Below are positions 3 to 62,410 of a DNA stretch of 64,000 nt, in pieces (the first letter of the stretch is position 1; each line of letters opens with the position of its first letter). Position numbers and translations under genes: made by a program. The notes beneath the pieces were generated by a model. That model saw nothing but the letters and a program-made list of their open reading frames with translations. It did not search any database and was not told the origin of the DNA. Source of the stretch: a virus; IMG/VR virus record IMGVR_UViG_3300042348_000780; one strand, written 5' to 3'.

Positions 3-266
3 TATGCCCCATATCGTCTTAACATAACATACGGTTCTTTGGGAACCATAAATGGATATACTTTCTATGGAATAACTTCATGTATAGGTTGTTGTGGAGC
101 TAGTTACTCTGGATTTACTGGTCCTACACATCGATTCCCAAATTGGAATCAGCTAATCACCGAAGATACCTTTGGTAATATAAATATACAAGATTTTATT
201 ATTTTATGTTATTCTGACGGTCTTACTAGCCCAAACGAAAATCTATCCTGTACTGGTTGCAACTAA
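3..266 (+). CDS. C-terminal part of a baseplate wedge protein (gp7-like position), truncated by the window start
   Basis: Frame is open from position 3 (YAPYRLNITYGSLGTING...). Its TAA overlaps the ATG of the gp8-like gene, and it lies just upstream of gp8. Confidence 0.55.
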   Translation, partial: YAPYRLNITYGSLGTINGYTFYGITSCIGCCGASYSGFTGPTHRFPNWNQLITEDTFGNINIQDFIILCYSDGLTSPNENLSCTGCN

Positions 267-2056
267 TGTTAAAAAAATCTAAAGATATTCAGTCATATAT
301 TTCATCTATAGGAAAAACCGAACATTTACATGTTTTTGTCGGTCAATCAGATAGTGTTGCTGATGATACTTCTACAATATCTTCTATAGATTTGTGGAGA
401 GATATGGCATTTAGTAAGAAAGTTAGTAAGGCTGACGTTATAGGTGTTATTAATAACAATCCCTGGTCATCTGGAAATATTTACTATCCTTGGAAATCAA
501 ACAAACAAAATACAAATTCATATTATGCATGGAATAAAGAAAATGGAAATGTTTATCTTTGTATTCAAAATAATGCATATAATAGAATAGATCGTGAAGG
601 ACAAAATGCTTCAACATATATTCCAAATCACAGTTATGGAATACAATCATATCCAGATGGTTATTCCTGGCTACCGATTTACAGAATAACAGGTGATTTG
701 CTAAGATTTGTTAAGACTGAATGGATTCCTGTTATATCATTTGAAACTTTTGAAGAACAAACATTTTCTACAGAATATACTGCACAGACTGAATTTTGTT
801 CAAACAATATAACAGCAACTGGATCGTGTGCTTTATATTTTAAAGATAATAATCAATTACCAATATCTGGTATAAGTTTTGAAAATTATTCTAAAGGAGA
901 TTTATATACCTCCTTTATTAGTGATTGTTCTGAGTGTTATACACTTTTTACAGATAATCCTAAGTTTTACAATAAATTCTATCCAACTGGTACTAGTGTA
1001 AATTCAACTTATACAATTGAAGATAAGTTTGATTTGATTGGAAGATTGATTTCAGAAAATAAACTACCAGCTTCATCTCCATATTATGCATTATATGAAA
1101 TAGCAAACAATGGGCCAGATGATGGTTCTCTTATTTCTGCACAGTTAGATTTATCAGGAATAACTGGTGATGATTTAGTTGTTAGTATACAAAATCCTCA
1201 AATTACTATTACATCAGCAACTGGATCAGGAGCATCAATGAGATTCCTGACCTACACAAATATTGATGGAAAATATATTGTAGAAGGTGTAGAAGTTCAA
1301 TCAGGTGGAACCAATTACAGAGATATTAGTTTGAGTATATCTAATTCAATATTTACAAATACTAACATTGTTGATATTTTATTATCATCAATTAATGTTA
1401 ATTTTGATAATATTGATGGATTAAACATAGATCCATATGATGTATTGAATTGTAATAATGTTATGGTAGATACAAGAATAGATACAAATGAATTATATTC
1501 GAGTGCTGTAGCATTGCCAGAAACTATAAATTTATTTGGTTTAGTATCTAATCCTTTAGAAGAATTACCAAATGGTGATCTTGTTATTGCTGGAGCTGAA
1601 TTATCTCCATATAACAGTAAAGTAAAATCAGGTGGTTCTGTGGTTTCTGTTTATTATCCTGGTGACGAAACACTTGGAAATCCCACAACTATTCCAAGTA
1701 AAGGTAAAGGGTCTGCAAATTCTATTATATCTGGTGTAAATAAAAATACAAATACAGCCAGAATTTTACAGAATGTATCAAATGATCCACTTTATGTTTT
1801 TGATTATCCACAGTTACCTTACGAGTCTATAGTCACTGTTAGTGGAATAGATTATTCTAACTTGTCTTCTTTATCTGAAATTACAGATTCAAGTGACAAT
1901 GAATTCATTGTAAGTACCGTGATTTCATCACCATCATTCAAACAATATTCTGGTAAAGTATTACAAACAAAAAGAACTTCAAGAGATCTAAAGTTAACAA
2001 CAACATCTGGTACATTATCCAGAATAATAAGAATAAATATGATTAAGGGATTATAA
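266..2056 (+). CDS. gp8: Baseplate wedge subunit, T4 gp8-like
   Basis: Motifs WSSGNIYYPW, GNVYLCIQNN and DGYSWLPIY match the gp8 pattern (W..G..Y / VYKC..N / DGY.W.Y). TAATG coupling places the start at 266. Confidence 0.75.
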   Translation: MLKKSKDIQSYISSIGKTEHLHVFVGQSDSVADDTSTISSIDLWRDMAFSKKVSKADVIGVINNNPWSSGNIYYPWKSNKQNTNSYYAWNKENGNVYLCIQNNAYNRIDREGQNASTYIPNHSYGIQSYPDGYSWLPIYRITGDLLRFVKTEWIPVISFETFEEQTFSTEYTAQTEFCSNNITATGSCALYFKDNNQLPISGISFENYSKGDLYTSFISDCSECYTLFTDNPKFYNKFYPTGTSVNSTYTIEDKFDLIGRLISENKLPASSPYYALYEIANNGPDDGSLISAQLDLSGITGDDLVVSIQNPQITITSATGSGASMRFLTYTNIDGKYIVEGVEVQSGGTNYRDISLSISNSIFTNTNIVDILLSSINVNFDNIDGLNIDPYDVLNCNNVMVDTRIDTNELYSSAVALPETINLFGLVSNPLEELPNGDLVIAGAELSPYNSKVKSGGSVVSVYYPGDETLGNPTTIPSKGKGSANSIISGVNKNTNTARILQNVSNDPLYVFDYPQLPYESIVTVSGIDYSNLSSLSEITDSSDNEFIVSTVISSPSFKQYSGKVLQTKRTSRDLKLTTTSGTLSRIIRINMIKGL

Positions 2057-2706
2057 TGGCTAACGAAATATTTGGAGATATTACAAATCCATCATCCTTG
2101 AGTAGAAAACCATTCTACTCAAGATTTACTTCTTTTGAAACCACAGAAGATAATTATATATTGATCGGATTCACACCTGGGTTAGCATTACAAGCCGCTG
2201 AATTAAATGAAATTCAAGATATTTATCACAAAATAGATAAATTAAGTAATACTATGATGTCTAATTGGACATTATATGCATTACAAAATATTGCAGATAT
2301 ATCAGATTTCACTGGAATAATATGGGATGGAACAATTCCATTATCACCAGATATGATCACAGTATCTGGTGATTTTATAACATTTTCATCTGGATGGTAT
2401 TACTATAATCATTCAAGTGGTCTGAATCATTGGGTATATCTTACAGAAGATATTATCTATGATTCATCTTTAGATGCAGCAAGTGGTTTTATAGGTTTCA
2501 GTATATCAACATTAGATGTATTTTCCTCTTCAGATGATCGTTTATATGATAACTCTTCTGGAAGTGTTAACACTAATAGTCCTGGTGCATATAGAGTAAA
2601 TCATAATATAACAGGTGCTAATTTTAATACTAATGCCAATAATACAAAAGTAATAATAAGAAAAACAAATAATGTTTATACTTATTTTAATGGAATGCCA
2701 ATTTAA
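2056..2706 (+). CDS. Short virion/baseplate protein with a DUF4815-type N-terminal motif
   Basis: FTPGLALQAAELNEIQ resembles the F.PG..VQARELT.LQ motif that opens the large structural protein following gp8 in T4-like phages. Confidence 0.6.
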   Translation: MANEIFGDITNPSSLSRKPFYSRFTSFETTEDNYILIGFTPGLALQAAELNEIQDIYHKIDKLSNTMMSNWTLYALQNIADISDFTGIIWDGTIPLSPDMITVSGDFITFSSGWYYYNHSSGLNHWVYLTEDIIYDSSLDAASGFIGFSISTLDVFSSSDDRLYDNSSGSVNTNSPGAYRVNHNITGANFNTNANNTKVIIRKTNNVYTYFNGMPI

Positions 2707-2718
2707 TAAAGGTTAAAG

Positions 2719-5037
2719 ATGCCAGTTACAAATAACACATATACTATTTCTACATTAGGAGCTACGGCTACTTTTTATGATTGGTTTAATAAAGAAAATA
2801 ATGATATTATTGCTAAATTAAACTTACTTAAGGTATATGGAGCCACAAGTGGTGATGGCATTTTAGCATCAACAAATACTAGTGGTCAATTATCACTATC
2901 AATAGGTGGTACATCTGGAATAATTCAAGCTCCTTTAACATTTAATAACACAATTACTTTTAATAGTAATGTAAATATTCCAAATATTAATATTCAGACA
3001 ACTGGTATTACATCTGGAACTTCTGGTTATACATTTGGTACACCAGTTAGAATTTACTTAGACTCAATAACACAGGCATTAGGTTTAACAGCATCAAGAG
3101 CAAATACTCCAGAAAATGCTGAAATATTAGGATTATTATCTTCAAGAGGAATCACATCATCAACTATAACCATTGCTGGTAAAATTACTGGAGATTTTTC
3201 TGGAATTTATGGTAAAGGTCTTAGTGCTGGTTGCATCTATTTTTTAGATAGCATAAATGCTGGAAAAATTGATGATGATGAACCACAAACTACTGGTACT
3301 GTTTCTAAACCAATAGTGATGGGTTTAACTCTAAATGAAGGTATAGTTTTAAGTTATCGTGGTAATTATTTAAATTACGATCTCACAAGTTATGGTTCTT
3401 CTGGCTCAAATCAAATAGTATTTTCTCTTAATACTGCACTTTATTCATCAGCAAACTCAGAAATATTGCTTGGTGATGTGTTGTCATTTTCTCCGTCTTA
3501 TGCAACTTCAATAAATGATGTCGATGCTTTAGGTAATAGAAAAAATTATGGAGGTTGGTTCCATAGTAGAGCTGGAAATGATGAAGAAGTTTATATTGTT
3601 GGTGTTGTGATTGAAAAATTTATAGTTGGTTCAAATCTTTATATTACTTTACAATTATCTGGATATACATCAGTATTACCTGGTGTTGGTGGTTCATATT
3701 TAAATGATGAGTTTGATCTTTCAGATAGGTCTGATAATCCTCAATTAATTTCAGCCACGACAAGACCAGGTACTCTTCCTCTTATTGCTATTAATTATGA
3801 TGTATCATCTGGTTATTCAGTAATTGATATACAAAAACCTTATACTACTTCATCAACAACTGATCTTCGTTCTACCTCTCTTCGTTCTACCTCATCGTCA
3901 TCAGCAGGAACTCCAAATGTTCTTATAAATGGTAATTTTGAAGTATGGCAGAGATCAAATATTGGTAGAGATGTGCCTTATACATCAACTGGGAATGTTA
4001 TATTTGCTGATCTATGGAGAAGACACGATGGTGTCACTGGTGGAGATAGTTTCAAGAACTTTTATATAACTAGACAATCATTTAGTGATTATCAGACAGA
4101 AATAGAAGGAAGTCCAAATTATTATGTCGATATAAAGGCTTTAGGTTCATCAGCAGCATCTTATGCTGGAATCACTACTGCTAGTTACCCTGGATATACT
4201 TTCTTCGATCATATGATGGTTGGTCATGTTATTCCAGATGCAAAAGCAGTCGATAAGAAAAATGTAACAGTTAGTTTCTATGCTAAGACATCACATTCAA
4301 ATTATAATACTGCTATAGTATATCTCTCAAGATATAATGGAACTTCTTTGTTAGATTATAAAGTATTGGGAACTGTAAATTTAACTACTAACTGGGCAAA
4401 ATATAATATAACAACTTATGTTGATGAAGTATCTTCGTCGGTTACACCATTGGCGAATGATTATTCTGAAATTGGACTTGATTTAATCCCTTTAATTACT
4501 CAAGCAAATGAAGCATCTGAATCAATTTCAACAAATGTTTATGTATCTTTAGCTTCATTCAATGCTTCATATGGAACATCATCTATATCTAATCATCATT
4601 TTATTCCATATGGCCAACAATTAGATTATTGCCAACAATATTATTATACAACATATGCAAGGGAAGAAAGAATAGGAACACCAACATTAGTTTCAAGATT
4701 CATAACATCAGAAACTACTCCATATCTTGTAACTCTTCCAAATTATTCATCAGTTGTTCATGAATTACCAATTCACATGAGAACAACACCTACTATAACA
4801 TTATACTCACCATACAGTGGATCTTCAAATGAAGCATATAATCAAACAGAGACAAGAGAATTAAGGTCCACAAATGGTACTGTTGGATATGCTGGAGGAA
4901 TACGAAGTGCATCTGGTGGTATAGCAATAAATGCCACACCAAGAATAAATACTATTAAAATAAATGTGAGTGAAGGATATACTTCATACGATCAAATTTA
5001 TTACCATTTCATTGCTGATGCTGACTATCCAATTTAA
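2719..5037 (+). CDS. Tail/baseplate fibre-like structural protein with a C-terminal carbohydrate-binding-like domain
   Basis: TFYDWFNKEN at the N-terminus. NVLINGNFEVWQR...ADLW and QLDYCQQYY are typical phage fibre-domain motifs. Gly/Ser/Thr-rich. Confidence 0.6.
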   Translation: MPVTNNTYTISTLGATATFYDWFNKENNDIIAKLNLLKVYGATSGDGILASTNTSGQLSLSIGGTSGIIQAPLTFNNTITFNSNVNIPNINIQTTGITSGTSGYTFGTPVRIYLDSITQALGLTASRANTPENAEILGLLSSRGITSSTITIAGKITGDFSGIYGKGLSAGCIYFLDSINAGKIDDDEPQTTGTVSKPIVMGLTLNEGIVLSYRGNYLNYDLTSYGSSGSNQIVFSLNTALYSSANSEILLGDVLSFSPSYATSINDVDALGNRKNYGGWFHSRAGNDEEVYIVGVVIEKFIVGSNLYITLQLSGYTSVLPGVGGSYLNDEFDLSDRSDNPQLISATTRPGTLPLIAINYDVSSGYSVIDIQKPYTTSSTTDLRSTSLRSTSSSSAGTPNVLINGNFEVWQRSNIGRDVPYTSTGNVIFADLWRRHDGVTGGDSFKNFYITRQSFSDYQTEIEGSPNYYVDIKALGSSAASYAGITTASYPGYTFFDHMMVGHVIPDAKAVDKKNVTVSFYAKTSHSNYNTAIVYLSRYNGTSLLDYKVLGTVNLTTNWAKYNITTYVDEVSSSVTPLANDYSEIGLDLIPLITQANEASESISTNVYVSLASFNASYGTSSISNHHFIPYGQQLDYCQQYYYTTYAREERIGTPTLVSRFITSETTPYLVTLPNYSSVVHELPIHMRTTPTITLYSPYSGSSNEAYNQTETRELRSTNGTVGYAGGIRSASGGIAINATPRINTIKINVSEGYTSYDQIYYHFIADADYPI
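3864..3893 (+). repeat. Perfect 15-bp tandem duplication (tcttcgttctacctc x2) in a Ser/Thr linker
   Basis: Read directly; encodes LRSTS-LRSTS. Confidence 0.85.
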
Positions 5038-5047
5038 GGAATAACAT

Positions 5048-5524
5048 ATGGCTACATCAATTAGTTCAAATATACGAGCAGCAAATACAGTAGTAAATTT
5101 ATCATCTGAGGGTGGTAATAGATTGATGGTACAGATAGGATCTGCACAAATTGCACCTCCAGGCTTATCTGCTGGTGATGCAATATTTTATAGTATATCA
5201 TCATCAAAGTATCAGAGATCAAAAGCAGATTCACCAAATACTGCTGAAGTTTTCGGAATAGTAGAAAGTGTTGATATTTCTGGAAATGCGAATGTTGTAT
5301 TGTATGGATCAATCGGTTTAACTGGATATATTAATATTGATGATGGTGGTGAAGGTGGTCATGATATTTACTTCCTTAGCGATTTAACTGCTGGAAAATT
5401 ACAGTCATTGGCTCCAACCAATCAAAATCATATTGTAAAACCAGTATATCAAGTAGCACCACACGGTAATTTTACAGGAACAGTAGTAAACTACATTGGT
5501 TATAAAGTACCAGTAAGTGAATAA
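5048..5524 (+). CDS. Small structural protein paralogous to an internal domain of the upstream gene
   Basis: SKADSPNTAEVFGIV / YFLSDLTAGKL / IVKPV / NYIG parallel SRANTPENAEILGL / YFLDSINAGKI / VSKPI / SYRG in 2719..5037. Confidence 0.65.
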   Translation: MATSISSNIRAANTVVNLSSEGGNRLMVQIGSAQIAPPGLSAGDAIFYSISSSKYQRSKADSPNTAEVFGIVESVDISGNANVVLYGSIGLTGYINIDDGGEGGHDIYFLSDLTAGKLQSLAPTNQNHIVKPVYQVAPHGNFTGTVVNYIGYKVPVSE

Positions 5525-5526
5525 TT

Positions 5527-8241
5527 ATGGGAAGTACTGGAAGCAGTTATGTTTATTCTTTAGAAATCGAATCCTATAGATCAGGATTAACTGGTATTAC
5601 AGGTAATACTGGTGCTACTGGTTCAATTGGAGCAACTGGTAATAGTATTATTGGACCTACAGGAAACACTGGAGGCAATTTAGTAAATATTACTATTGCA
5701 GAAGATAAAACATTTGTTTTTCATTATAGTGATGGAAAAACTATTTCTTCCATTGCACGTATTATTGGTGCTAATGGTTATTCAAAAATAAAATTACTTG
5801 GTGTAAGTCTTTTTAATTTTAGTCCATTAAATAATTCATTAACAAATCAAACGTATGATTCTCAATTTCCTGTTGATATATTAACATTTAAAGGTATATC
5901 ATCAGCGAGTTCTCCATACGTAAGAGTAAATTATATCAATAATAACACAATTCGTGTTGATTTTGATGCAATCAATATTGGATTTATTGGTATAAGTGGT
6001 GGAACTTTAGGAAATATTTTACAAAATCTTCCAGGACAAAAACAGGCTGGAATTACTTCTACCAAATATAATGAAGATGAAGCATCTATATTAATACAAC
6101 ATAAAAATATACATGAAAGTCTTGTAATTTGCAAACCCAATGTTGTAAGTTCATCATTAGTTTATTGGAAAATAGATCCATCACAAGGATCTATATTTCA
6201 CATCAATCCATATACAAATACTTTAAATACAAATAATGAAATAAATGGATATGTGTTCTTTATAAAAGAACCACAATATGGTACTTTATCTAAAGGTATC
6301 ACAATTCAATTTCCAAATACATTTACATTAAATTCAAATAAAATATATTATGTAATTTATGATAATGATGCTGATATTGATTCTGGAATTACATTAGGTG
6401 ATAATTTCTATAATAGATTTGATGTTGCTGGTATAGAATGGCAAAATAATTCATATTTTTGCCCAGATTCATCATTTAATGCTCTCAATCTAATTTCAAT
6501 TGGTGGAAGATATCTTGCATATCCTGTACAATATCAACAAAATAGTGCAAGTTCAAATACTTCTATTGATTCAGAAAGTTTAAGTGTAACATGCTACCCA
6601 TATTCAGAAAGATTGCCATCACAAGAATTTTTTACTGGTGGTTTATGCTGTCCAGGCAATTGTACTTCTTCCGCTTATGAAAGCATAAGTGGTGGGTGTA
6701 CTGGCTATTTCATTCCAACAAAAAGAATATCAAATTCATCATTGTGTACTAGAAAAGGTAGTTGTTGTATTAAAACAGCAGAAAATACCTTTACACCAAG
6801 TGAATTAACTTATTGTGAATGTGCTACTAGTGCTGGAGAGAATGAATTTATTTTTCACCCATTTGAGGGGCTAAAGAGTACATTAGAATGGTTTTTATGT
6901 GATGATACATGTTTTCGTAATGTTCCATCAGGTTCTTGTTGTGATGGACTTGGTAACTGTTTAGATTCTAGTATTATTACTTGCAATGAACTAGGTCACT
7001 TTTTTCAAGGCATTGGTGTTAAATGTAAACCTAATAATGCCTCGCAATTAAACATATGTTCTGGTGGTAGTGGTGGATGTTGTGATTCTGGTATGACTTG
7101 TGTTAATGGATATACAGGATCACAGTGTATTTCTGAAAGTAAATCATATCTAGGTGATCAAAAATATTGTCAATCATTTAATTGTTCACCAGATTCTATT
7201 GCATGTTCACAGACTATTCCAGGTATATCAGAATTAAAACAGGGTGATGAATATGCTGGAGGTATTGTTGTTGGAATATTTGATTTGAATACTTCTAAAA
7301 TTTTCGGTAATGATATTTTTAATGATATTAGTGCAGTTTCTAATTTCTTTGACATTGATACTATAAATTCTGATAGATCTTCAGTGCCTTTTACTATTAA
7401 ATACGATTTTAATGGATATGGTTTTGATAAATCTTTTGCATCTAGAACTTCTAGAGAAGATAAGTTTATATTAATTATTTCTAAACAAGATTTAGAATAT
7501 CGAAATACTTCACATTTCATTTGGTCTAAAAATCAAATTGCTTGGGGATATATATACAATCCAATAACAAATAATATAGAAGAGATCACATCAAAATCTG
7601 TATTTAATTTAGGTGAAGGTGTTGTATCTTTGACAAGTTTATCAAGCAATACCTTTGCATTACCAACTATAAGAACTAGTGGTAGTTCTTTACAATGGCT
7701 TTTCGATCAATCATCTTCTGGATATACTGGTAAATGGAGAAGAAATTATGGTTTATATAATACTCATAGACTATTGACATCTAAGCTGTTATATAATGAA
7801 GATATATCATTAACTACTCCAACAATCTACCAGGCAATTAAACAATACAATATTGACAATCCTCCTACAACAGAAAGAGAATCAAGTTGGTTTATTCCAT
7901 CACACGATGAACTTGGTTTTATTTCATATCTAACACAGCAGACAACAGATTTTAATATAAATGTTTCATTACTGTTGTCTGGTTATGATCAATTAAATGG
8001 AATTTACTGGACATCAACTGGAGCACACACCACAGCAGATGCACAAGCATCCTCTACTAAAGGATCAAATGCTTGGATTCATAATATTGATGCAGAAAAT
8101 CCAGAAAACAATTATTCTATAACTGCGAATAGAATAGAAAATACATATAAAGTTAGGCCAATTAAATTAATAAGATGTGATGGATCGTATCCTTCAGTAA
8201 GTGATGAAACATACAAACTATGGCGTTTGCCATTAATCTAA
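5527..8241 (+). CDS. Tail appendage protein: short collagen-like N-terminus, GxCC Cys-rich repeats, C-terminal DUF1566/Lcl-like (C-type lectin-fold) domain
   Basis: GLTGITGNTGATG; GSCC/GGCC repeats; WFIPSHDEL...YWTST...VRPIK. Confidence 0.65.
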   Translation: MGSTGSSYVYSLEIESYRSGLTGITGNTGATGSIGATGNSIIGPTGNTGGNLVNITIAEDKTFVFHYSDGKTISSIARIIGANGYSKIKLLGVSLFNFSPLNNSLTNQTYDSQFPVDILTFKGISSASSPYVRVNYINNNTIRVDFDAINIGFIGISGGTLGNILQNLPGQKQAGITSTKYNEDEASILIQHKNIHESLVICKPNVVSSSLVYWKIDPSQGSIFHINPYTNTLNTNNEINGYVFFIKEPQYGTLSKGITIQFPNTFTLNSNKIYYVIYDNDADIDSGITLGDNFYNRFDVAGIEWQNNSYFCPDSSFNALNLISIGGRYLAYPVQYQQNSASSNTSIDSESLSVTCYPYSERLPSQEFFTGGLCCPGNCTSSAYESISGGCTGYFIPTKRISNSSLCTRKGSCCIKTAENTFTPSELTYCECATSAGENEFIFHPFEGLKSTLEWFLCDDTCFRNVPSGSCCDGLGNCLDSSIITCNELGHFFQGIGVKCKPNNASQLNICSGGSGGCCDSGMTCVNGYTGSQCISESKSYLGDQKYCQSFNCSPDSIACSQTIPGISELKQGDEYAGGIVVGIFDLNTSKIFGNDIFNDISAVSNFFDIDTINSDRSSVPFTIKYDFNGYGFDKSFASRTSREDKFILIISKQDLEYRNTSHFIWSKNQIAWGYIYNPITNNIEEITSKSVFNLGEGVVSLTSLSSNTFALPTIRTSGSSLQWLFDQSSSGYTGKWRRNYGLYNTHRLLTSKLLYNEDISLTTPTIYQAIKQYNIDNPPTTERESSWFIPSHDELGFISYLTQQTTDFNINVSLLLSGYDQLNGIYWTSTGAHTTADAQASSTKGSNAWIHNIDAENPENNYSITANRIENTYKVRPIKLIRCDGSYPSVSDETYKLWRLPLI

Positions 8242-8242
8242 C

Positions 8243-11230: not shown

Positions 11231-11246
11231 ATAAAATTGGAATATT

Positions 11247-18568: not shown

Positions 18569-18569
18569 T

Positions 18570-20200: not shown

Positions 20201-20202
20201 TT

Positions 20203-22339: not shown

Positions 22340-22384
22340 TCAAAAAAGCTAAAAAAATATATATTATTAGAATAGGAGAAAATT

Positions 22385-23572: not shown

Positions 23573-23586
23573 TCTAGGAGATAATA

Positions 23587-41501: not shown

Positions 41502-41504
41502 ATA
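41497..41504 (+). promoter_or_regulatory. Late promoter TATAAATA inside the glycosylation island
   Basis: Exact consensus overlapping the stop codon, 7 nt before the ATG at 41512. Confidence 0.6.
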
Positions 41505-41511
41505 CTAGACC

Positions 41512-43720: not shown

Positions 43721-43815
43721 GAACATAAATATATGTTATCAATTATTACTTATATTTAAATAAAAATATTTTATATATTGACATCTGTTAATAAAATATG
43801 ATAGAGAATTTTAAA

Positions 43816-45836: not shown

Positions 45837-45837
45837 T

Positions 45838-47574: not shown

Positions 47575-47575
47575 T

Positions 47576-48334: not shown

Positions 48335-48335
48335 A

Positions 48336-49780: not shown

Positions 49781-49781
49781 T

Positions 49782-51128: not shown

Positions 51129-51131
51129 ATA
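51124..51131 (+). promoter_or_regulatory. Late promoter TATAAATA upstream of the GT2-TPR gene
   Basis: Exact consensus overlapping the rfbH stop, then an AAGGA RBS. Confidence 0.65.
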
Positions 51132-52361: not shown

Positions 52362-52390
52362 ATAAAAACCCGCAAGATGCGGGTTTTTAT
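52362..52390 (+). terminator. Rho-independent terminator ending the glycosylation island
   Basis: aaaaacccgca-aga-tgcgggttttt. Confidence 0.85.
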
Positions 52391-52395
52391 AAATA
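52388..52395 (+). promoter_or_regulatory. Late promoter TATAAATA fused to the terminator tail
   Basis: Exact consensus, followed by AGGAGA and the ATG at 52413. Confidence 0.75.
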
Positions 52396-52412
52396 GCTGT
52401 ATAGGAGACTCC

Positions 52413-52739
52413 ATGCCAAAGAAATTCGGAATCGCAATCACAAATCCATCGGCAATGTATACTGTAGGACATATTGCAGCAACTGCGGACACCTACACTT
52501 CTGCAAATGCTCATGTTACTGGTACAAGTACTGGTGCTTTAAATGATGGTGTTTTAGTAAAGAATGTTGGTCCTCTTGATATAAAAGTTGCATTTAGCGG
52601 TGCGACTCATGGTTCAGATACAGGATTTATTCTTGGTCAAGCTGAACAGATTTTTGTCGAAACAGCAAGTTTATCATCAGTCATTGTTAAAAATAATACA
52701 GCATCTGAAGGTATTACATTTAGCGTCTACGCAAACTAA
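52413..52739 (+). CDS. Small beta-rich virion accessory protein (paralog 1 of 3)
   Basis: GVLVKN...GFIL...IFVE; RBS supports the start at 52413. Confidence 0.65.
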   Translation: MPKKFGIAITNPSAMYTVGHIAATADTYTSANAHVTGTSTGALNDGVLVKNVGPLDIKVAFSGATHGSDTGFILGQAEQIFVETASLSSVIVKNNTASEGITFSVYAN

Positions 52740-52747
52740 GGATTCAC

Positions 52748-53080
52748 ATGGGATTTAAAAACGATTTTTTAAATTATCCTGTAAAAGTATTTTTCTCAAA
52801 TACAATACGTAGTGGTGATGCAAATGATTTTGTTGTTATTACAACAGATGTATTAAATGTAAATACATCACTAGCAAATGTCGGTTTCCTAATAAAAAAT
52901 ATAGGAACCGATTCTGATTGTTATTTTTTTGTCAAACACTCTAATAACAATCACGGTAGTAATACTGGATTTAGAGTCAATATTGGAGAAAGTATTTTTG
53001 TAGAGTGTAATAATATATCTGATGTTTATATAAAATCAAATACGGCTCAAGAAATTTCATATCAAGTAATTGGAAATTAA
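52748..53080 (+). CDS. Small beta-rich virion accessory protein (paralog 2 of 3)
   Basis: GFLIKN...TGFRV..GESIFVE. Confidence 0.65.
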   Translation: MGFKNDFLNYPVKVFFSNTIRSGDANDFVVITTDVLNVNTSLANVGFLIKNIGTDSDCYFFVKHSNNNHGSNTGFRVNIGESIFVECNNISDVYIKSNTAQEISYQVIGN

Positions 53081-53089
53081 AGGAAAAAC

Positions 53090-56000: not shown

Positions 56001-56926
56001 CTGGTGCAGCTGGCATATTACCAAATAATGGTGAAACTAATCTATTAACTACCTCCTATGGTATGAGAGCGATTACTAGAAATGGCAATTTGCTCATAAT
56101 AGTGATGGATACAGAGACAGTGCGTGGAACTATAGATTTAAATGATATTTGGTACTGTGTTGCAAATCCAACAATTGCTGTTGGAGCCACTGCAATGGCA
56201 GATGAATATATCATTTCAAATTGGAAGAAGGCAGAGAATGTATTTGGTTATTTTGCTGGCACTAATATTGGCTTCTACACAAATGATCTTCCTGCATCTG
56301 GATCATTGATACCAAACTATAATCCAAGTGCAACCGATGATAAATTAATATTCTTCAAATATTTAACAAAATTAAATATTGCAGATACTCAAAATATGAT
56401 TTCTGTTGTACCAGCTCCAACTGGTATTACACAATCACAATGGAGTAATATTAATTCAATAAATTATGCTGGTTGGACATTCTCAGATGCCTATAAGATT
56501 CATAAGATAGATTCAATAATAACAAACAATACCCCAGGAAATGCTGGTTATTTTAGATACAACTTCATTAATTCAACAGCAAATGATTATAGAAGATATG
56601 CATATAATACATTTAGATTGTGGTATAATAACTTTATTGACATGGAAACCATCCGTGGTATTCCAACATTCAGTATAAGACAAGAAGTTGATACTAATGT
56701 CTTTGAACAGATGGATATGTCGGTCGAGAAGTTAACATTGAATGAAACCATATTGAGTAATGAATTCTATAATCCAAAGGGTAGAAATATTTTAAATTCT
56801 GGTGTTATAGGTAGTGATTATGAACATAATGGATTCTATAACACATATATTCATGGACTTACATTCAATTTATTACTTCCACAGACTCCACATACATTGT
56901 TATGGTGTTCAGGGGCTACAATTTAA
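53090..56926 (+). CDS. Large (1278 aa) hypothetical, probably virion-associated, protein
   Basis: Long ORF with an AAGGA RBS in a late unit; rich in aromatic residues, Gly and Asn; many G-X-T motifs. Confidence 0.7.
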   Translation: MSKNPGSISEQKSPQTYIPSANPYNLSNVGAPTQYNSATVPVTYNGFKWSFSSPVTWGRFVSGEPYIILPAAGVMVTGVSYENTPGVYENCPILKTGYTSEAGQLNNVGITMWVNGSMKNPVPWYHIELLNWSLATIGTTIQKWSYDERYSNNINLIKGWTVIKDIDESKFPMSEFLRFPVGLSAGDVLVTTKSNFNANWQQSNRPQGVARFVAFTDPWMSRLGIEKYGILTSIPQGKGPTYADCYRPPVMWNGSSFSDRPIFYRRDMVKNTEDYLLSIPEKNVYGEDINLNSTSIQQEFNNWNDKITNYWKSSVMPYHSHHHRQGAVGAYDVYNSTPNETKYGYHGYSCKIIDQTAQSIFVPWVSRTNRQKALDKFTQYGIDSWGMINAGGAAAGNGGHNQGIFVPSLAFLGWVYDRNDIKQWHNNKQLLDKLKSTQIHQTTGASIPGISGGRWAIGQIQVPSDFYVKSLVSQDYNQRVKLFGSAVTNKQGFTHATLTNSDIDLYHGLTYPSVASGATGEGWGYKLTGITCAFAYSVPSLELTGQIVSGNFGVIVAHRDFVGRLNGLGPKSNKSGPAELPLKLNSNGYLMKKGFHSEDDVTDYWGFTSQTLVGSKIKITSGPGAGNTAYEILDVKNTFVDRGSLQAGDEETEQTVTNTNLQKLQYASFILDRDFDDNVVPTSESTFKIYPAENNYSGWGFYANPWLQGYTYNMNLTTIYNQHNYNDIADENIMKFAAMYNWLGITHEQYMVDYIKDLYWNTAIPSYIRRRKILGGPYLGSLYDSSNIVGGNVIVQMLGITGATFLPRSINLNDLAGINDTVPALDLNGITLEFIPEPITNYTVVNGSGISYSGYGKIFNTPQTPFKIDAIIDDKIFINPSFSSLYTLISRFKAKNGPFLSDDLITETQETDNQYKDRYAIYNFLSKRDFTNVNNVVSSAEYLRNIPSLQTLNQTNTKLNLTFISNQYGVAGAAGILPNNGETNLLTTSYGMRAITRNGNLLIIVMDTETVRGTIDLNDIWYCVANPTIAVGATAMADEYIISNWKKAENVFGYFAGTNIGFYTNDLPASGSLIPNYNPSATDDKLIFFKYLTKLNIADTQNMISVVPAPTGITQSQWSNINSINYAGWTFSDAYKIHKIDSIITNNTPGNAGYFRYNFINSTANDYRRYAYNTFRLWYNNFIDMETIRGIPTFSIRQEVDTNVFEQMDMSVEKLTLNETILSNEFYNPKGRNILNSGVIGSDYEHNGFYNTYIHGLTFNLLLPQTPHTLLWCSGATI

Positions 56927-56937
56927 CAGAGGATAAT

Positions 56938-57255
56938 ATGTCAAAAAATATAACACAAGTCATAAATCCACCGAAATTAATGATAACATTGTCTTTATCG
57001 AATGATGATTTTCAATATTTGACAGATTTAGTTTCTGTTGATTTTAGTTCAATAAATAATGGTGTTTTCATCAAAAATAATTCAACTGTTTCTGGTCAAA
57101 ATGTTTCTGTAAAAATTGCCAATGTTACAAACGTAGCAAATACAATTGAATTAATTAATGATGATAATATTTTTATTGAACTTGATACTATATCGAATCT
57201 TCAATTAAAGGGTGATTCGACTACACCAAGATCAGTAAGTATTTTTGTTAATTAA
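56938..57255 (+). CDS. Small beta-rich virion accessory protein (paralog 3 of 3)
   Basis: NGVFIKN...DNIFIE; GAGGA RBS before the ATG at 56938. Confidence 0.65.
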   Translation: MSKNITQVINPPKLMITLSLSNDDFQYLTDLVSVDFSSINNGVFIKNNSTVSGQNVSVKIANVTNVANTIELINDDNIFIELDTISNLQLKGDSTTPRSVSIFVN

Positions 57256-57268
57256 TTAGCAAATTCAT

Positions 57269-57304
57269 GAAAACACGGAGAAGAAATTCTCCGTGTTTTC
57301 TTTT
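57269..57304 (+). terminator. Rho-independent terminator
   Basis: gaaaacacggagaa-GAAA-ttctccgtgttttc followed by a T run. Confidence 0.88.
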
Positions 57305-57311
57305 ATAAATA
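57304..57311 (+). promoter_or_regulatory. Late promoter TATAAATA
   Basis: Exact consensus, 6 nt before the ATG at 57318. Confidence 0.75.
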
Positions 57312-57317
57312 TTCATA

Positions 57318-58484
57318 ATGCCTTTAAATTTTCCAGCAAATCCTATGACTGGTGCTACATTTTCATTTGAAAATGTGTCATGGACATATAATGGATATGC
57401 TTGGCAGAGATTAGTTGGTCCAACTGGAGCAATAGGTCCAATTGGTCCAACTGGATCTCAAGGTATTCAGGGTCCAACAGGTCCAACAGGATCTCAGGGT
57501 CCAACAGGTCCAACAGGATCTCAGGGTATTCAGGGGCCAACAGGTCCAACAGGATCTCAGGGTATTCAGGGTCCAACAGGATCTCAAGGTGTATCAGGTG
57601 CAATAAGTTTTACTTCATCAACTACAGCACCCGCAGGAGCCACATACGGCGATATGTGGTTCAACACCACAAGCGGAAATATATTTGTTTATATTACAGA
57701 CGGAACATCTTCCTATTGGGTTGAACCATTTGGTCCTCAAGGAGCAACAGGTGCTAATGGAACAAATGGAGTAAGTGGTGCTACTGGTGCTACAGGAGCA
57801 ACAGGTTTTCAAGGTAATACTGGTGCAACAGGTTCTCAAGGTGTTACAGGTGCCACTGGTCCCCAAGGTGCAACAGGTACCGCAGGTTCAGGTGTTGCTG
57901 GTAACAACGATGTCGGTGTGATGTATTTGAAAAATAATGCTGTCGAGACAGTAATTTCCGTAATCAACCAGCGTCAGGTTGTTTCGGGAACTATGCAAAC
58001 GGGAGCCTTATACAATTTTATCAAAGATCCCTCGACTAACTCGTTAAAATATACAGGTAGTGGTGGAAGATTCCATGCTATAGCAACCTTCGACTTTTTT
58101 AGCGAAGTTAGCAACAACACATGTGGATTCTACATCGGAAAGAACACAGATCCTGCTAGTGGTCTGAGTGCGGATGCTGACAGAATCTCGGAATCAGAAA
58201 TTTATGTTGACTGTTCATCATCGTCTAAACCAGTTGCGGGTGCTATTCAGACAATAGTTGATCTTGAGACGGATGATCGTATCTTCTTTATTGTGCAGAA
58301 CAAAAGTGCCGCAAAGAATATTACTGTTGAGTTTATGAAGTTTATAGCAGTTCCCTTGACATCCGAACGCGGAGCAACGGGAGCAACAGGTGCAACTCCA
58401 ACAAATATTGTAAATTCCGTCAACGGTCAAACAGGTGCAGTTCAATATATCGTAGACTTCAAGAGAGGATGGTTCTTCCTATGA
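57318..58484 (+). CDS. Collagen-like fibre protein
   Basis: MPLNFP.NP...W.Y.G..W N-terminal module; GPT/GSQ/GIQ and GAT triplets; GDMWFN...YWVE; SVNGQTGAV. Confidence 0.8.
57417..57590 (+). repeat. Collagen-coding tandem repeat (9-bp units ggtccaaca / ggatctcag / ggtattcag)
   Basis: Read directly; the same units occur at 61664-61945. Confidence 0.85.
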
Positions 58485-59365
58485 GAAGATGGCGATTAAA
58501 CTCTGGTTACAATGGAACAACAGATCAACGCCGAACTCAGGCGGGAACCATTCCTATGTTGAAGCATTACATGGAGAGAGATGTGGGATTGTTTTTTAAT
58601 ACTGTTGCTGTTGGGTGGACGCCTGCCAATCTTACTTCTATTGCTTGTTGGTTAGACGCAGCAGACATAAACACAATCACCCTTAATGAAACTACTGTTT
58701 CTCAATGGAACGACAAGAGTGGAAACGAAAGACACGCAACACAAGCGAATGCAGCAAATCAACCAACATATATTTCTAATGGAATGAACTCATTAGGACT
58801 CATTGATTGGGATGGTTTAAACGATTCAATGACGATAAGTGGAGGAATAACACCATTACATTCAGAATTATCGGGAGACAATACTTATAGCATGGCATGG
58901 GCAGTAAAGCCAGATACAATCAGCGGTCAAGAAGTTTTGCTTTATGTGCCAGAAGGTAGTTGGAAATTCTTAGTTGAAATCAAAAGTGATGGAGGATTGT
59001 ATTGGGGAGATACTACATCCAACTACAGAACATATAATGGAGGATCATTCTTCGTAATTAATACTGGAACTTTCTTTACGCTAATCAAGACAGGATTGGG
59101 TGCTGGAACTGCCCATGTAGGAGGAACCCTCAACACTAGTTTTACAAATAATGGTGGTCTGGGTGATACTCCTTCATTAGGCGCAGCATTTATTTTGGGT
59201 CAATATCCTGGTCTATTCTACAATGGTAAGATGGCAGAAATCATTATATCAAATTATTCTTGGGATACACCTGAAAGACAACGAGTCGAAGGATATCTTG
59301 CACACAAATGGGGATTACAAGCAAATCTTCCCAATGATCACCCGTACAAATCCTCCGCACCATAA
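58481..59365 (+). CDS. LamG/concanavalin A-like domain virion protein (paralog A)
   Basis: WTPA...WLDAAD...WNDKSGN..HATQ....QP; G.MAEII; [17 protein letters not shown]; ATGA overlap places the start at 58481. Confidence 0.7.
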
Positions 59366-59639
59366 GCGTAAATACTAACAAATGCCAATACAATTTCCAC
59401 CATCTCCATCAGTAAACCAAGAATACACCTACGAAGGAAAGGTGTGGGCATGGGATGGTTCTTCATGGGTTGGTGTGCGTCAAGAAACAGGAGTACAAAA
59501 AAGTAATATCTGGGCAAAGCAGAATCTTCTAATTCCTAAACGAGGATTCGGATTAAACTCTGGTTACAATGGAACAACAGATCAACGCCGTACAAAGGCA
59601 GGAACCATTCCTAGTCTGAAGCATTACATGGAGAGAGAT
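58494..59639 (+). repeat. Direct repeat pair of about 89 bp (58494-58582 / 59551-59639)
   Basis: First 40 bp identical (gattaaactctggttacaatggaacaacagatcaacgccg); remainder highly similar. Confidence 0.85.
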
Positions 59640-60437
59640 TTAAATGAGTTTATTAATACTGTTGTTATTCCTGGTACTGAATGGACACCCGCAAACATTT
59701 CTACTGTCTTTTGGTTAGATGCAGCAGACTCTAGTACAATCACTATTGCAACAGGTGTTGCAACATGGGCAGATAAAAGTGGAAATTCAGTAAACGCAAC
59801 CCAAGCAACTACAACACTTCAACCATCATACTCTGCAACCGCTTTTCCTGGTTCGTTGCCAGGAGTTTTATTTGATGGTGTAGATGACATAATGGATATT
59901 TCTACTATAGCCATGAGAAACCAAACACACGGCGTGTATTGGGTTTTTTCAAGAAGTGGTGCAGGAAGTGGTGCTGATGGTTATAGAACAATTATTGGTG
60001 GAAGAGCATCTGCGGGAACTGGAACTGACCGAGGTGCATTGCACTATATAAAAATTGCTAATGATTTTGGTGCATCTTATCCTTTCTTCCAAGGACCTAC
60101 AACCGTCAGTTATGATCTGTCAGCAGGAATAGCATATTCAAATAGTACAGGAAATGTAATGTCATTTCAAAGCAATACCACGGGATGGGGCGTATGGAGA
60201 AATGGAACTTTGGAAGGCACAACAAACAATATTGTAACACCCGATGCTACTAATATTGGATATTCTATTGGTGGGCAGTACAACACCTCAAGACGAATGC
60301 ATGGTGTAATGGGGGAATTAATTATGGTGGAAACCACAGATACCACTACAAGACAAAAAATCGAAGGATACCTTGCACACAAATGGGGACTGCAAGCAAA
60401 TCTTCCAGTAGATCACCCGTACAAATCCTCCGCACCA
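59286..60437 (+). repeat. Direct repeat pair of about 77 bp (59286-59362 / 60361-60437)
   Basis: tcgaaggata.cttgcacacaaatgggga...gatcacccgtacaaatcctccgcacca occurs in both gene ends. Confidence 0.85.
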
Positions 60438-60446
60438 ACAGTATAA
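59382..60446 (+). CDS. LamG/concanavalin A-like domain virion protein (paralog B) with an MP..FP..P N-terminal module
   Basis: Same WTPA/WLDAAD/DKSGN and [10 protein letters not shown] motifs as paralog A. Confidence 0.72.
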   Translation: MPIQFPPSPSVNQEYTYEGKVWAWDGSSWVGVRQETGVQKSNIWAKQNLLIPKRGFGLNSGYNGTTDQRRTKAGTIPSLKHYMERDLNEFINTVVIPGTEWTPANISTVFWLDAADSSTITIATGVATWADKSGNSVNATQATTTLQPSYSATAFPGSLPGVLFDGVDDIMDISTIAMRNQTHGVYWVFSRSGAGSGADGYRTIIGGRASAGTGTDRGALHYIKIANDFGASYPFFQGPTTVSYDLSAGIAYSNSTGNVMSFQSNTTGWGVWRNGTLEGTTNNIVTPDATNIGYSIGGQYNTSRRMHGVMGELIMVETTDTTTRQKIEGYLAHKWGLQANLPVDHPYKSSAPTV

Positions 60447-60449
60447 ATA
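60442..60449 (+). promoter_or_regulatory. Late promoter TATAAATA
   Basis: Exact consensus overlapping the stop codon, before the gene at 60465. Confidence 0.6.
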
Positions 60450-60464
60450 TAAAGAGATAAATTC

Positions 60465-60785
60465 ATGCCCGACATATACCTCAACTACGCAACATCAATC
60501 GGAACCACTGGTGCAAGCACAATCTATGCTGGCATCACAGGTACTGCCATTATCAATGGCATCCATGTTGCAAACACAAGCACTAGCACAGCAAACTCTG
60601 TTTCCATTCAGTTGTTCAAGGGAGCAACAGGATACTACATTGTTCGTGCAGCAGCAGTTCCGATTCAGTCAACATATCAAGCACTAGACACACCTATTCC
60701 GTTAATAACAGGAGATACACTCAAGGCAACAGCAGGAGCAACTGCTGGTCTTGATATAATTGTATCAGTATTGGAGTCAACCTAA
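60465..60785 (+). CDS. Small fibre-associated virion protein
   Basis: TIY...AII.GI.VAN...VP..ST...PI.L..GDTLK...LD..VSVLE pattern, common beside phage fibre genes. Confidence 0.65.
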   Translation: MPDIYLNYATSIGTTGASTIYAGITGTAIINGIHVANTSTSTANSVSIQLFKGATGYYIVRAAAVPIQSTYQALDTPIPLITGDTLKATAGATAGLDIIVSVLEST

Positions 60786-61093
60786 TGGCATTACAGCAGA
60801 TAATTCAACATGAGACAGGTTCATACTCGCAATATTGGCGAGTTGTTCGTACAAGTTTAAACTATGATATTTTACGAGGAGAAATAGTTCTCTATGGATA
60901 TGTCTCACAACAAGCGCGTGAGTCTGGAAAGACCAAACTAGATTCTCGTACATTTTCAGTGACGACAGAAGATTTCAATACTTATTTTATTCCTTCTGCA
61001 ATCGATCCACAAGATATCAATCAAGTTAAAAATTCTTACTTGTATATTAAAGGTATCAGTGGTGGAGAATTTTCGACAGCAACAGATATTTAA
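60785..61093 (+). CDS. Hypothetical protein
   Basis: TAATG-coupled 102-aa ORF (YWRV...GY.S..AR...Y.YIK...F..A.D). Confidence 0.65.
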   Translation: MALQQIIQHETGSYSQYWRVVRTSLNYDILRGEIVLYGYVSQQARESGKTKLDSRTFSVTTEDFNTYFIPSAIDPQDINQVKNSYLYIKGISGGEFSTATDI

Positions 61094-61104
61094 AGGAAAA
61101 TGCT

Positions 61105-61347
61105 ATACCAGCATCAAGATATGACATATACACAGAACAAGGATCTACTTTTAAACTGCATTTACACTACAAATATTCTGGTGGAACTGGATATACTGGT
61201 GGTATTTTTATTCGTGCTGATGCGACAACTATGAAAAATACACCATATGGAAAGCATTTTTATGATCTGGAATTGACAAATAGTCTTGGAGAGGTTCAAA
61301 GACTCATTGAAGGTAGTTTTGAAATATCAAGAGAAATTACGAGATAA
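61105..61347 (+). pseudogene. Probable decayed gene of the 'MPA..YD...EQG.TF ... YDLEL...V.RL.EG....EITR' phage fibre-adjacent family (ATA in place of ATG; apparently shortened)
   Basis: Open frame IPASRYDIYTEQGSTFKLHLHYKYSGGTGYTGGIFIRADATTMKNTPYGKHFYDLELTNSLGEVQRLIEGSFEISREITR*. AAGGA RBS lies 7 nt upstream of the ATA. Confidence 0.6.
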
Positions 61348-61366
61348 TTGACGGCGGACTTTATTG

Positions 61367-62410
61367 ATGTCGGATACATCTATAACCATAACACAACAAG
61401 GTCAAGCAAGAACTATTACAGCAATAGCACCTGGAGTAGCATTATCTGGACCACAAGGAATACAAGGTCCAACTGGTGAACAAGGTTCAAGAGGTGCTAC
61501 TGGTCCAACTGGTGCTTCTAATTTATATGAATTATTAGATGTTTCTATTGATCCAGAAACAGATTATCTTGATGGTAGGATATTAATCTATAGAACATCT
61601 GAAAATAAATGGAAAGTAGAAGATAACACAAATTTCTTTCTTCCTGCAAATAATGGTGCTACTGGTCCAACAGGTCCAACAGGATCTCAAGGTATTCAGG
61701 GTCCAACAGGATCTCAGGGTATTCAGGGTCCAACAGGATCTCAGGGTATTCAGGGTCCAACAGGTCCAACAGGATCTCAGGGTATTCAGGGTCCAACAGG
61801 ATCTCAGGGTATTCAGGGTCCAACAGGTCCAACAGGATCTCAGGGTATTCAGGGTCCAACAGGATCTCAGGGTATTCATGGTCCACCAGGTCCAACAGGA
61901 TCTCAGGGTCCAACAGGTCCAACAGGATCTCAGGGTATTCAGGGTGTCACAGGTGCTACGGGTGCTACAGGATCTCAAGGCATTCAAGGTGTCACGGGTG
62001 CTACAGGATCTCAAGGCATTCAAGGTGTCACAGGTGCTACGGGTGCTACAGGTCCAACCGAAGACAACATAACTCTATTCATTGATGCAACTCCAGATGA
62101 CATCACAACAGGGAACAAAGGTTATAAGCAGATTGCATATAACTGCGAGGCAATTGAATGGTATGTAATTTCAGGACAAACTGGCAGTATTGAGTTTGAT
62201 ATCAAGAAATCATCATTTGCTAACTACCCATCTACAACATCAATAGTCGGTTCAGATTATCCAGGATTCAGTGGAGCAATGAAGGACTCCAATACTGGAA
62301 TCACCGCATGGAGTGGTTTATCGGCAGGAGATATAATTGATTTTGTAATAAATAGTAATACGGGTGTGCAGAGTGTTGGATTGTTTATAAAGATCAGGAG
62401 AACATCGTGA
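61367..62410 (+). CDS. Collagen-like fibre protein with a C-terminal beta domain
   Basis: Long ([12 protein letters not shown])n run; C-terminal TG.KG...W...GSIEFDI...GLSAGD. Confidence 0.8.
61664..62058 (+). repeat. Collagen-coding tandem repeat array
   Basis: Near-perfect 27/36-bp units ggtccaacaggatctcagggtattcag, then ggtgtcac.ggtgctac. units. Confidence 0.9.

Follow-up and report, generated by a model that had tools for sequence, protein, structure and literature searches.

The closest described counterpart of the system considered here is found in Clostridioides difficile, in which the enzyme SgtA consists of a GT-A glycosyltransferase domain (residues 1-260) followed by four tetratricopeptide repeats (TPRs, residues 262-358), and its gene lies directly upstream of bclA3, which encodes a collagen-like glycoprotein of the spore exosporium (PMC7157674). 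Recombinant SgtA places beta-O-linked N-acetylglucosamine (beta-O-GlcNAc) onto Thr of GAT and GPT peptides, and Ser is also accepted in vitro (PMC7157674). Here we describe a 64,000-nucleotide (nt) stretch of viral DNA, IMG/VR record IMGVR_UViG_3300042348_000780 (hereafter the window, in whose coordinates all positions are given), which, judging from its genes, is an uncultured T4-like myovirus with cyanophage-type gene order. It encodes a candidate protein glycosyltransferase, GT2-TPR, and its outward-facing virion proteins are enriched in the tripeptide Gly-hydrophobic-Thr, dispersed outside collagen-like repeats. Our principal reading, to which we assign a rough probability of 0.5 on the strength of sequence, structural models and analogy, is that the virion would be O-glycosylated at G-X-T, the dispersed sites included. 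An earlier, sequence-only reading of the window had proposed G-X-T/S as an acceptor motif of outer virion proteins, modified by GT2-TPR and furnished, with the help of a neighbouring sugar island, with a glycan coat over the whole virion.

The window resembles the SgtA/BclA3 system in possessing a soluble enzyme of ~360-400 amino acids (aa), with a GT-A domain and a C-terminal TPR region, and a GPT/GAT collagen-like gene as its neighbour; this likeness lies in how the domains are arranged and in the neighbouring genes, as PMC7157674 reports them for SgtA. It differs in that a phage virion takes the place of the spore, that the motif extends beyond collagen into many unrelated surface proteins, where its middle residue is hydrophobic, and that the phage enzyme follows a variable 10-kb sugar island.

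Two other groups of enzymes are related in build. SunS, the sublancin S-glycosyltransferase, and ThuS (PDB 7msn, 7msp, 7msk), glycocin S-/O-glycosyltransferases composed of a GT-A and a helical-repeat domain, are the best structural match, but they target Cys (ThuS also Ser) of small bacteriocins rather than Thr of structural proteins. Family scans of the window gave no sign of a glycocin system. In the cytoplasm of Listeria monocytogenes, GmaR O-glycosylates Ser and Thr residues of a surface filament protein. This flagellin O-GlcNAc transferase, which is also an anti-repressor, has a TPR region (PMC9638930), and its GT2 domain (PDB 22ao) is similar in sequence to GT2-TPR (E 1.8e-7) over the N-terminal 95 residues only. 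The setting of GmaR includes flagellin and MogR, and the phage possesses neither.

Phage particles are commonly regarded as bare protein, the exceptions among viral particles being those of giant viruses and of some mycobacteriophages, which glycosylate their own virions. Both differ from the present case in using other enzyme families, with no simple dispersed sequon described. In giant viruses, glycosylation of the particle is virus-encoded, and the fibrils include collagen-like proteins (PMC9614988). The host-recognition clusters of pelagimyophages and cyanomyophages are likewise T4-like and aquatic, and present a variable region with fibre genes, collagen repeats and lipopolysaccharide (LPS)-type sugar genes; the clade's GT2-TPR finds no match among the T4-like phages of the cultured collection. 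Our literature searches turned up no account of glycosylated virions, or of a dispersed minimal sequon, among T4-like phages. The enzyme-substrate pairing of C. difficile and the virus-encoded particle glycosylation of giant viruses are known already; what the present work adds is the restriction of X to hydrophobic residues, the use of negative controls, the comparison of outer with inner orthologues, and the analysis of site turnover.

Gly-hydrophobic-Thr in the virion proteins of the window

The exterior and fibre-like proteins of the window were pooled (9,293 residues), GXY runs of at least 4 triplets were masked, and observed and expected counts were computed for every a-x-b pattern (312 patterns). 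G-x-T stood at the top of all patterns (121 observed vs 71.0 expected), and its entire excess resides in G-[IVLFYWMA]-T, hereafter G-hydrophobic-T (77 vs 27.1), with G-polar-T at its expectation (44 vs 44.4); G-[IA]-T by itself gave 46 vs 10.0. When all exact tripeptides were ranked without bias, GIT (29 vs 5.7) and GAT (17 vs 4.2) were the most over-represented, at ranks 1 and 2. G-x-S was not enriched (84 vs 79.9), and neither were T-x-G and G-x-G. The proposed G-X-T/S motif is therefore upheld for Thr behind a hydrophobic middle residue, but not for Ser.

The enrichment exceeds what Gly and Thr composition provides. Shuffling within 30-aa blocks gave 28.3 sites against the 77 observed (z 9.1), with 0 of 1000 shuffles as high, and when all runs of at least 2 triplets were masked, 54 sites remained vs 21.5 expected (z 7.2). 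Codon use within the motif equals the general usage of those genes, which argues that selection acts at the protein level and rules out a DNA-level origin of the motif. The motif-rich regions show no detectable paralogy with one another, and about one quarter of the sites have Gly at +3. In the collagen-like triplets themselves (n=117), Thr occupies 52% of Y positions (GPT 31, GAT 17), in line with the Thr predominance reported earlier.

The explanation that the motif is a by-product of composition, of degenerate collagen repeats or of a few repeated families, which draws on the Gly- and Thr-rich nature of the exterior proteins, on Gly at +3 and on the incomplete independence of the counts from relatives given below, is very improbable and close to refuted by these controls, since per-protein and local shuffles preserve composition yet never reach the observed count, the excess survives stringent masking, G-polar-T, T-x-G and G-x-G are not enriched, the motif-rich regions are not detectably paralogous, and orthologues show independent gains of sites.

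Two further results were set aside. G-polar-C, also in excess in the exterior proteins (28 vs 11.3), was considered as an S-glycosylation site and dropped, as it is absent in the proteins of relatives; the excess comes from Cys/Gly-rich stretches at 3-266, 5527-8241 (residues ~513-530) and the C-terminal end of 8243-11230, which are probably local disulfide or metal modules and not a second acceptor motif. A higher conservation of motif Thr (57% vs 30% for other Thr) was not used because two collagen-like proteins dominate the alignments.

The proteins concerned, all on the + strand, are as follows.

3-266, + strand: C-terminal fragment of a baseplate/fibre-module protein; 4 G-hydrophobic-T vs 0.4 expected
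2719-5037, + strand: tail-fibre protein, 772 aa (phrog_4492); 12 G-hydrophobic-T vs 2.9 expected
5527-15779, + strand: three fibre-like proteins, 904, 995 and 1510 aa (PHROG tail-fibre and collagen-like matches)
18570-20200, + strand: gp14 and gp15 neck proteins (PHROG); three sites each, 3 vs 0.8 and 3 vs 0.6 expected
22385-23572, + strand: gp18 tail sheath, 395 aa; motif present four times, of which three fall in the variable N-terminal part
29439-30866, + strand: gp23 major capsid protein (phrog_138); motif at residue 5 and at 155/158
53090-56926, + strand: 1278-aa orphan protein; 18 G-hydrophobic-T vs 3.5 expected, along its whole length
57318-58484, + strand: collagen-like fibre protein (Pfam PF01391, E 4e-17, 62.2 bits; PHROG tail and tail-fibre families)
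60465-60785, + strand: 106-aa protein; six G-x-[TS], three of them G-hydrophobic-T; preceded by a TATAAATA box at 60442
61364-62410, + strand: collagen-like protein (Pfam PF01391, E 4e-25, 87.9 bits), with GXY runs at residues 29-52 and 98-232

Enrichment is uneven across these proteins, being very strong in the 1278-aa protein, which carries the strongest dispersed signal of all, and in the 2719 protein, present in those starting at 5527, 8243, 57318 and 60465 and in fragment 3-266, and weak in the 11247 protein. The three fibre-like proteins at 5527, 8243 and 11247 each have a short N-terminal GXT collagen run in addition to the dispersed motif (6 vs 2.0, 7 vs 2.2 and 7 vs 3.0), and both PF01391 matches exceed the gathering cut-off of 27.2 bits, the GXY runs of the 57318 protein lying at residues 34-96 and 139-192. 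The sites quoted in the sequence-only reading were recovered, namely all six G-x-[TS] of fragment 3-266, the examples from gp14, gp15, gp18 and gp23, and the GATI C-terminus of the 1278-aa protein; its counts proved low for 2719-5037 (about 18, recounted as 24) and for the 60465 protein (5, recounted as six).

By compartment, gp14, gp15, gp18 and gp23 together have 13 sites vs 3.9 expected, the inner core proteins 2 vs 2.5 and the non-structural proteins 3 vs 8.2; internal virion and replication proteins do not show the signal. The gp14 and gp15 sites fall mostly within or beside the variable C-terminal parts, and gp23 residues 155/158 fall in a variable region aligning with the insertion of T4 gp23. 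An AlphaFold2 (AF2) model of gp18 built from five orthologues reached a predicted local distance difference test score (pLDDT) of 45 and was unusable for mapping sites.

Some of these proteins are unusual in other respects. The gp18 sheath is short (395 aa vs 659 in T4 and 743 in S-PM2, with ~395-432 aa in relatives), and its conservation with cyanophage sheaths is limited to residues 214-387 (tblastn). The 1278-aa protein has no Pfam or PHROG family and no relatives from searches of IMG/VR or the cultured phage collection, and comparison of loci confines its homologues to the closest relatives. At 58469-59365 and 59382-60446 lie paralogues of PHROG 10356, "virion structural protein" (42% identical, one with a weak concanavalin-like match), which, unlike their neighbours, lack motif enrichment (2 vs 1.3 and 0 vs 1.7).

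The motif in relatives and in phages without the enzyme

The signal recurs in relatives of the window. The 334 unique open reading frames (ORFs) downstream of GT2-TPR in 80 loci contain 1008 G-hydrophobic-T vs 415.9 expected, with GIT, GLT, GAT and GVT as the four most over-represented tripeptides, while 675 upstream ORFs of the same loci contain 218 vs 212; these counts include homologous proteins and are not fully independent. Given the upstream figure, the apparent depletion in the non-structural proteins of the window was dropped as a result. G-hydrophobic-S is mildly raised to an equal degree on the two sides of GT2-TPR (1.49x and 1.43x), so that the differential signal is Thr-specific, and G-hydrophobic-V is not enriched. 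Fibre modules 5' of gp13 in three divergent relatives show the motif at 3.3x, 2.1x and 2.6x, and relatives encode homologues of fragment 3-266 ahead of their baseplate wedge gene.

The most informative comparison is that of orthologues whose fold is known. In four further relatives, the outward-facing gp13, gp14, gp15, gp18 and gp23 carry 41 sites vs 19.4 expected and gp16, gp17, gp19, gp20, gp21 and gp22 carry 5 vs 11.1. Sites lie mostly in variable parts, that is, the C-terminal parts of gp14 and gp15, the N-terminal half of gp18, and the gp23 region aligning with the T4 insertion. In gp13/14/15/18/23 of five phages, 55 sites occupy 42 alignment columns, of which only 7 are shared; motif density is kept while site positions turn over. 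Such turnover is expected of a surface tag under selection and not of a structural element fixed by the fold.

T4, S-PM2 and P-RSM4 have no GT2-TPR homologue, according to a search of the cultured phage collection, and G-hydrophobic-T is not in excess in their fibres and baseplates (17 vs 22.7, 30 vs 35.4 and 70 vs 61.4, respectively). The same holds for their orthologues of the outer proteins (4 vs 4.4, 7 vs 5.6 and 8 vs 5.8). In the distal fibre proteins gp36 and gp37 of T4, G-x-T is modestly in excess, yet there the middle residues are polar, which is a different pattern. Taken together, it is well supported by these sequence counts that the motif is not generic to phage fibres, and that it is clade-wide and located on outward-facing virion proteins in this clade only.

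GT2-TPR and its genomic neighbours

The enzyme, the box in front of it and the island that it closes are as follows.

40659-51128, + strand: sugar island, 11 soluble proteins (Pfam, NCBIfam, paralogy)
51124-51131, + strand: TATAAATA box, T4-type late-promoter consensus, 19 nt 5' of the GT2-TPR start codon
51150-52358, + strand: GT2-TPR glycosyltransferase, 402 aa (Pfam, PDB matches, AF2 model)

The N-terminal domain of GT2-TPR is of the GT-A type (Pfam PF00535, E 3e-14; GT-A fold in the model), and D89-A-D91-D92 is invariant in 25 homologues, so that the DXD metal/nucleotide-sugar motif is intact. In the AF2 model, which was built from 25 homologues with a pLDDT of 89, the C-terminal part forms a TPR-type domain of ten helices (residues 175-384), although the Pfam TPR_16 match is weak and below its cut-off. 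By sequence, the closest PDB entries are SunS, GmaR, ThuS and the TPR protein MamA. Foldseek places SunS/ThuS first (E 1e-16, over the full two-domain length) and the wall-teichoic-acid enzymes TarS/TarP next (~1e-7), with designed TPR chains also among the matches. GT2-TPR is not a SunS equivalog, as TIGR04195 scores 38.6 bits against a cut-off of 350 and matches residues 7-94 only. Its assignment to the protein-directed type of glycosyltransferase is well supported by sequence and model.

As regards timing, 18 relatives out of 66 distinct ones have a TATAAATA box within 80 nt upstream of GT2-TPR, in most cases with its first base 26 nt 5' of the ATG; the background rate is 0.009 per 80 nt. 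In the window, + strand boxes at 17743, 28445, 40209, 41497, 51124, 57304 and 60442 stand 15-30 nt 5' of the starts of gp13, gp22, regA, island gene 2, GT2-TPR, the collagen-like gene at 57318 and the 106-aa protein, respectively; the window total of 18 boxes vs 14.5 by chance is no excess.

GT2-TPR has 234 relatives in IMG/VR (51-90% identity) and more than 6,000 homologues in metagenomes. Directly 3' of it in the window are two small paralogues without a family (52377-52739 and 52748-53080, 36% identical), also present in the closest relatives L001, L007 and L008.

The two collagen-like genes of the window are found 5 and 9 kb 3' of GT2-TPR. Dereplication left 34 phage loci of sufficient length; 21 of them have the start of a collagen-like ORF no more than 3 kb downstream of GT2-TPR, and 1 has such a start equally close upstream. 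In some relatives (L025-L030) GT2-TPR and then a collagen-like gene come straight after regA, with no island between. Bacterial homologues, at 37-45% identity, are spread over many phyla and were found in, among others, Streptomyces, Mycobacterium, Polyangiaceae, Chlamydiae, Comamonadaceae, Verrucomicrobia, Acidobacteriota and Acinetobacter. Of 80 bacterial loci, 37 have a collagen-like ORF (at least 10 triplets) no further than 6 kb away, usually ending just 5' of the enzyme gene, and in 23 of those 37 Thr occupies at least 50% of Y positions. Collagen-like genes are generally rare in bacterial genomes, so that this linkage would seem to lie far above any plausible base rate. In the unrelated jumbo phage Tunturi_5, of Tunturiibacter, a distance of 3.7 kb separates the homologue from a fibre in which GAT/GPT/GIT runs make up 330 residues. 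The genomic association of the enzyme's homologues with Thr-rich collagen-like genes, in phages as well as in bacteria, is well supported. The best-supported part of our reading is that GT2-TPR would be a protein O-glycosyltransferase, with a Thr-rich collagen-like protein as its ancestral partner, made late together with the virion proteins.

Some of these neighbourhoods deserve mention in their own right. In Tunturi_5 (L169, 13391-16809), four tandem ORFs of ~281-285 aa, gp30-gp33, annotated as hypothetical, lie between the homologue and the collagen-rich tail fibre gp29 and, given their equal size, are probably paralogues. Across the bacterial loci L173-L252 (e.g., L223 1283-5809, L237 1-3930, L238 1243-5794 and L242 1034-5700), the enzyme homologue adjoins very long Thr-rich collagen-like genes, such as a Chlamydiales ORF of 434 triplets with 87% Thr and a proteobacterial ORF of 393 triplets with 98% Thr, as well as arrays of 3-4 tandem collagen-like paralogues. 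This looks like a widespread and largely unstudied bacterial cassette of the SgtA/BclA3 type.

The sugar island

The island encodes GT10-like and GT34-like transferases, a GT10 paralogue, a set of sugar enzymes (a 4,6-dehydratase/epimerase, a NeuB/PseI-like synthase, an acetolactate-synthase-like thiamine diphosphate (ThDP) enzyme, a second epimerase, and an RfbH equivalog at 483 NCBIfam bits against a cut-off of 423), and four proteins without a family. RfbH, the 4,6-dehydratase, the ThDP enzyme, a short-chain epimerase/reductase and the NeuB/PseI-like enzyme, all soluble, are grouped at 43798-51128. The gene content suggests a branched or 3,6-dideoxy sugar as a product, and perhaps a nonulosonic acid as well. 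In relatives the island opens with GT10 and p41512 after regA and closes with GT2-TPR, and the content between varies. None of the island proteins has a membrane-helix-like segment (19-residue Kyte-Doolittle window >1.6), and no Pfam family of membrane-embedded transferases, flippases or polymerases was found in the island; the soluble nature of its proteins fits cytoplasmic protein modification rather than assembly on a lipid carrier.

Weighing the interpretations

Under the principal reading, GT2-TPR would be a soluble, late-expressed protein O-glycosyltransferase of the SgtA/SunS/GmaR type, whose GT-A domain would move the first sugar from a nucleotide sugar onto the Thr hydroxyl of G-X-T and whose TPR domain would hold the protein substrate. 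Its substrates would be the collagen-like GXT runs of fibre proteins and, further, the dispersed G-(I/A/L/V/Y/F)-T of outward-facing capsid, neck, sheath, baseplate-module and fibre regions. The unusual sugar involved (3,6-dideoxy or branched, and nonulosonic-like) would come from the variable upstream island, whose further transferases may extend the glycan. We infer that the dispersed sites are acceptors from the restriction of the motif to this clade, to outward-facing proteins and to Thr, from positional turnover, and from loci L042, L066 and L070, in which the neighbouring collagen runs are almost free of Thr, yet the enzyme and the dispersed motif are retained.

Several observations weigh against this reading. 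In the non-collagen parts of the bacterial partner proteins the dispersed motif is not enriched (60 vs 64.5). Among huge phages with a homologue, only 1 of 3 has a collagen-like gene within 15 kb. SgtA accepts Ser, whereas Ser is not differentially enriched in the phage motif, and a hydrophobic residue beside Thr is also compatible with a structural element that leads from a turn into a strand. A search for clade members lacking the enzyme yielded none, and 32 of 32 regA-anchored relatives with enough downstream sequence carry the sugar island; because the enzyme is present in all members seen, its association with the motif amounts to a single evolutionary event. Thr at collagen Y ranges from 0 to 98% among relatives, and this share is uncorrelated with the strength of the dispersed enrichment (rho 0.02). 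GNT is the commonest collagen triplet in relatives, yet G-polar-T is not enriched outside collagen, from which it also follows that the dispersed motif is not simply a stray collagen triplet. Lastly, per-protein counts show no enrichment in the exterior proteins at 257, 58469, 59382 and 62407, so that the coat over the whole virion put forward in the sequence-only reading is not supported. The broadest version of the proposal, in which the whole particle exterior of an abundant uncultured T4-like clade would be O-glycosylated at Gly-hydrophobic-Thr by one SgtA-like enzyme, with sequons turning over as in the glycan shields of animal viruses and a hypervariable island diversifying the glycan in a serotype-like manner, is one that we entertain only tentatively and consider somewhat doubtful.

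The strongest competing explanation is that GT2-TPR glycosylates the collagen-like GXT runs only, in the manner of SgtA with BclA3, and that the dispersed motif is the recognition site of another process or a structural element, namely a Gly turn followed by a buried hydrophobic residue and an exposed beta-branched Thr. It accommodates the replication of the enzyme-collagen link in bacteria and unrelated phages, the lack of dispersed enrichment in the bacterial partners, and the unenriched GNT, and a hydrophobic middle residue with Thr over Ser suits a motif that starts a strand. However, the motif is missing from the fibres and baseplates of three other T4-like phages, although these are beta-rich too, same-fold orthologues of gp13, gp14, gp15, gp18 and gp23 carry it in this clade only, and its positions turn over, unlike those of a fold-fixed element. 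The unenriched G-hydrophobic-V indicates that beta-branching alone is insufficient, and the three loci with nearly Thr-free collagen runs still retain both the enzyme and the dispersed motif. We regard this explanation as possible, though on the unlikely side.

A less probable alternative, which we consider clearly unlikely, is that the products of the island, transferases included, are directed at phage DNA or at the O-antigen or capsule of the host, which they would remodel as a block to superinfection, as put forward for pelagimyophage glycosyltransferases, and that the virion motif is unrelated. The transferases in similar gene sets of marine T4-like phages, the pelagimyophage and cyanomyophage clusters, have been read as modifying the host O-chain (PMC7029224), phage GT-A enzymes are able to hypermodify DNA with glycans (bioRxiv 10.1101/2023.12.21.572611), and O-antigen pathways are where enzymes such as RfbH, 4,6-dehydratase and NeuB are typically found. 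On the other hand, the island is devoid of membrane proteins, flippase, polymerase and lipid-carrier transferase, and the enzyme at its end folds like peptide glycosyltransferases, with a TPR protein-binding domain, at the border of a structural module and behind a late-promoter box. Some relatives have the enzyme and a collagen-like gene directly after regA, without an intervening island, Pfam scans of the window detect no gene for a cytosine methyltransferase, a dioxygenase or a hydroxymethylase next to the island, and the clade-specific surface motif would be left unexplained, as would the fold of the enzyme.

If virion O-glycosylation at G-X-T is true, one sequon and one enzyme would glycosylate most outward-facing proteins in a very common environmental T4-like clade. 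This would offer a new view of host recognition, particle stability, resistance to grazing and stickiness in aquatic phages, and the "LPS-type" sugar genes of marine and freshwater myoviruses, now taken as modifiers of the host surface, would need rereading. It would also provide a compact enzyme-and-tag pair for glycoengineering.

Gene map of the window

The remaining modules of the window, whose genes are all on the + strand (G+C ~30%) and include no tRNA gene, are listed below.

257-17730, + strand: baseplate/fibre module (PHROG and Pfam scans)
17765-30866, + strand: T4 core from gp13 to gp23, with two tandem tube genes (PHROG and Pfam scans)
To 40646, + strand: gp3-like gene, uvsY, uvsW, gp55, gp47, gp46, gp45, gp44, gp62 and regA (PHROG, Pfam)
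52377-64000, + strand: second structural block, with the 1278-aa orphan, both PF01391 collagen-like proteins and the pair of "virion structural protein" paralogues (PHROG, Pfam)

The window has no close DNA-level match in the cultured phage collection. Gene-order comparison shows the stretch from gp13-gp23 through regA to be colinear with the T4-like cyanophages S-PM2 and P-RSM4, and the portal protein is 53% identical to cyanophage portals. The two gp19 tail-tube paralogues in tandem (23587-24093 and 24078-24635) are 46% identical, and a third member of the tube family occupies the gp3 position (30897-31502).

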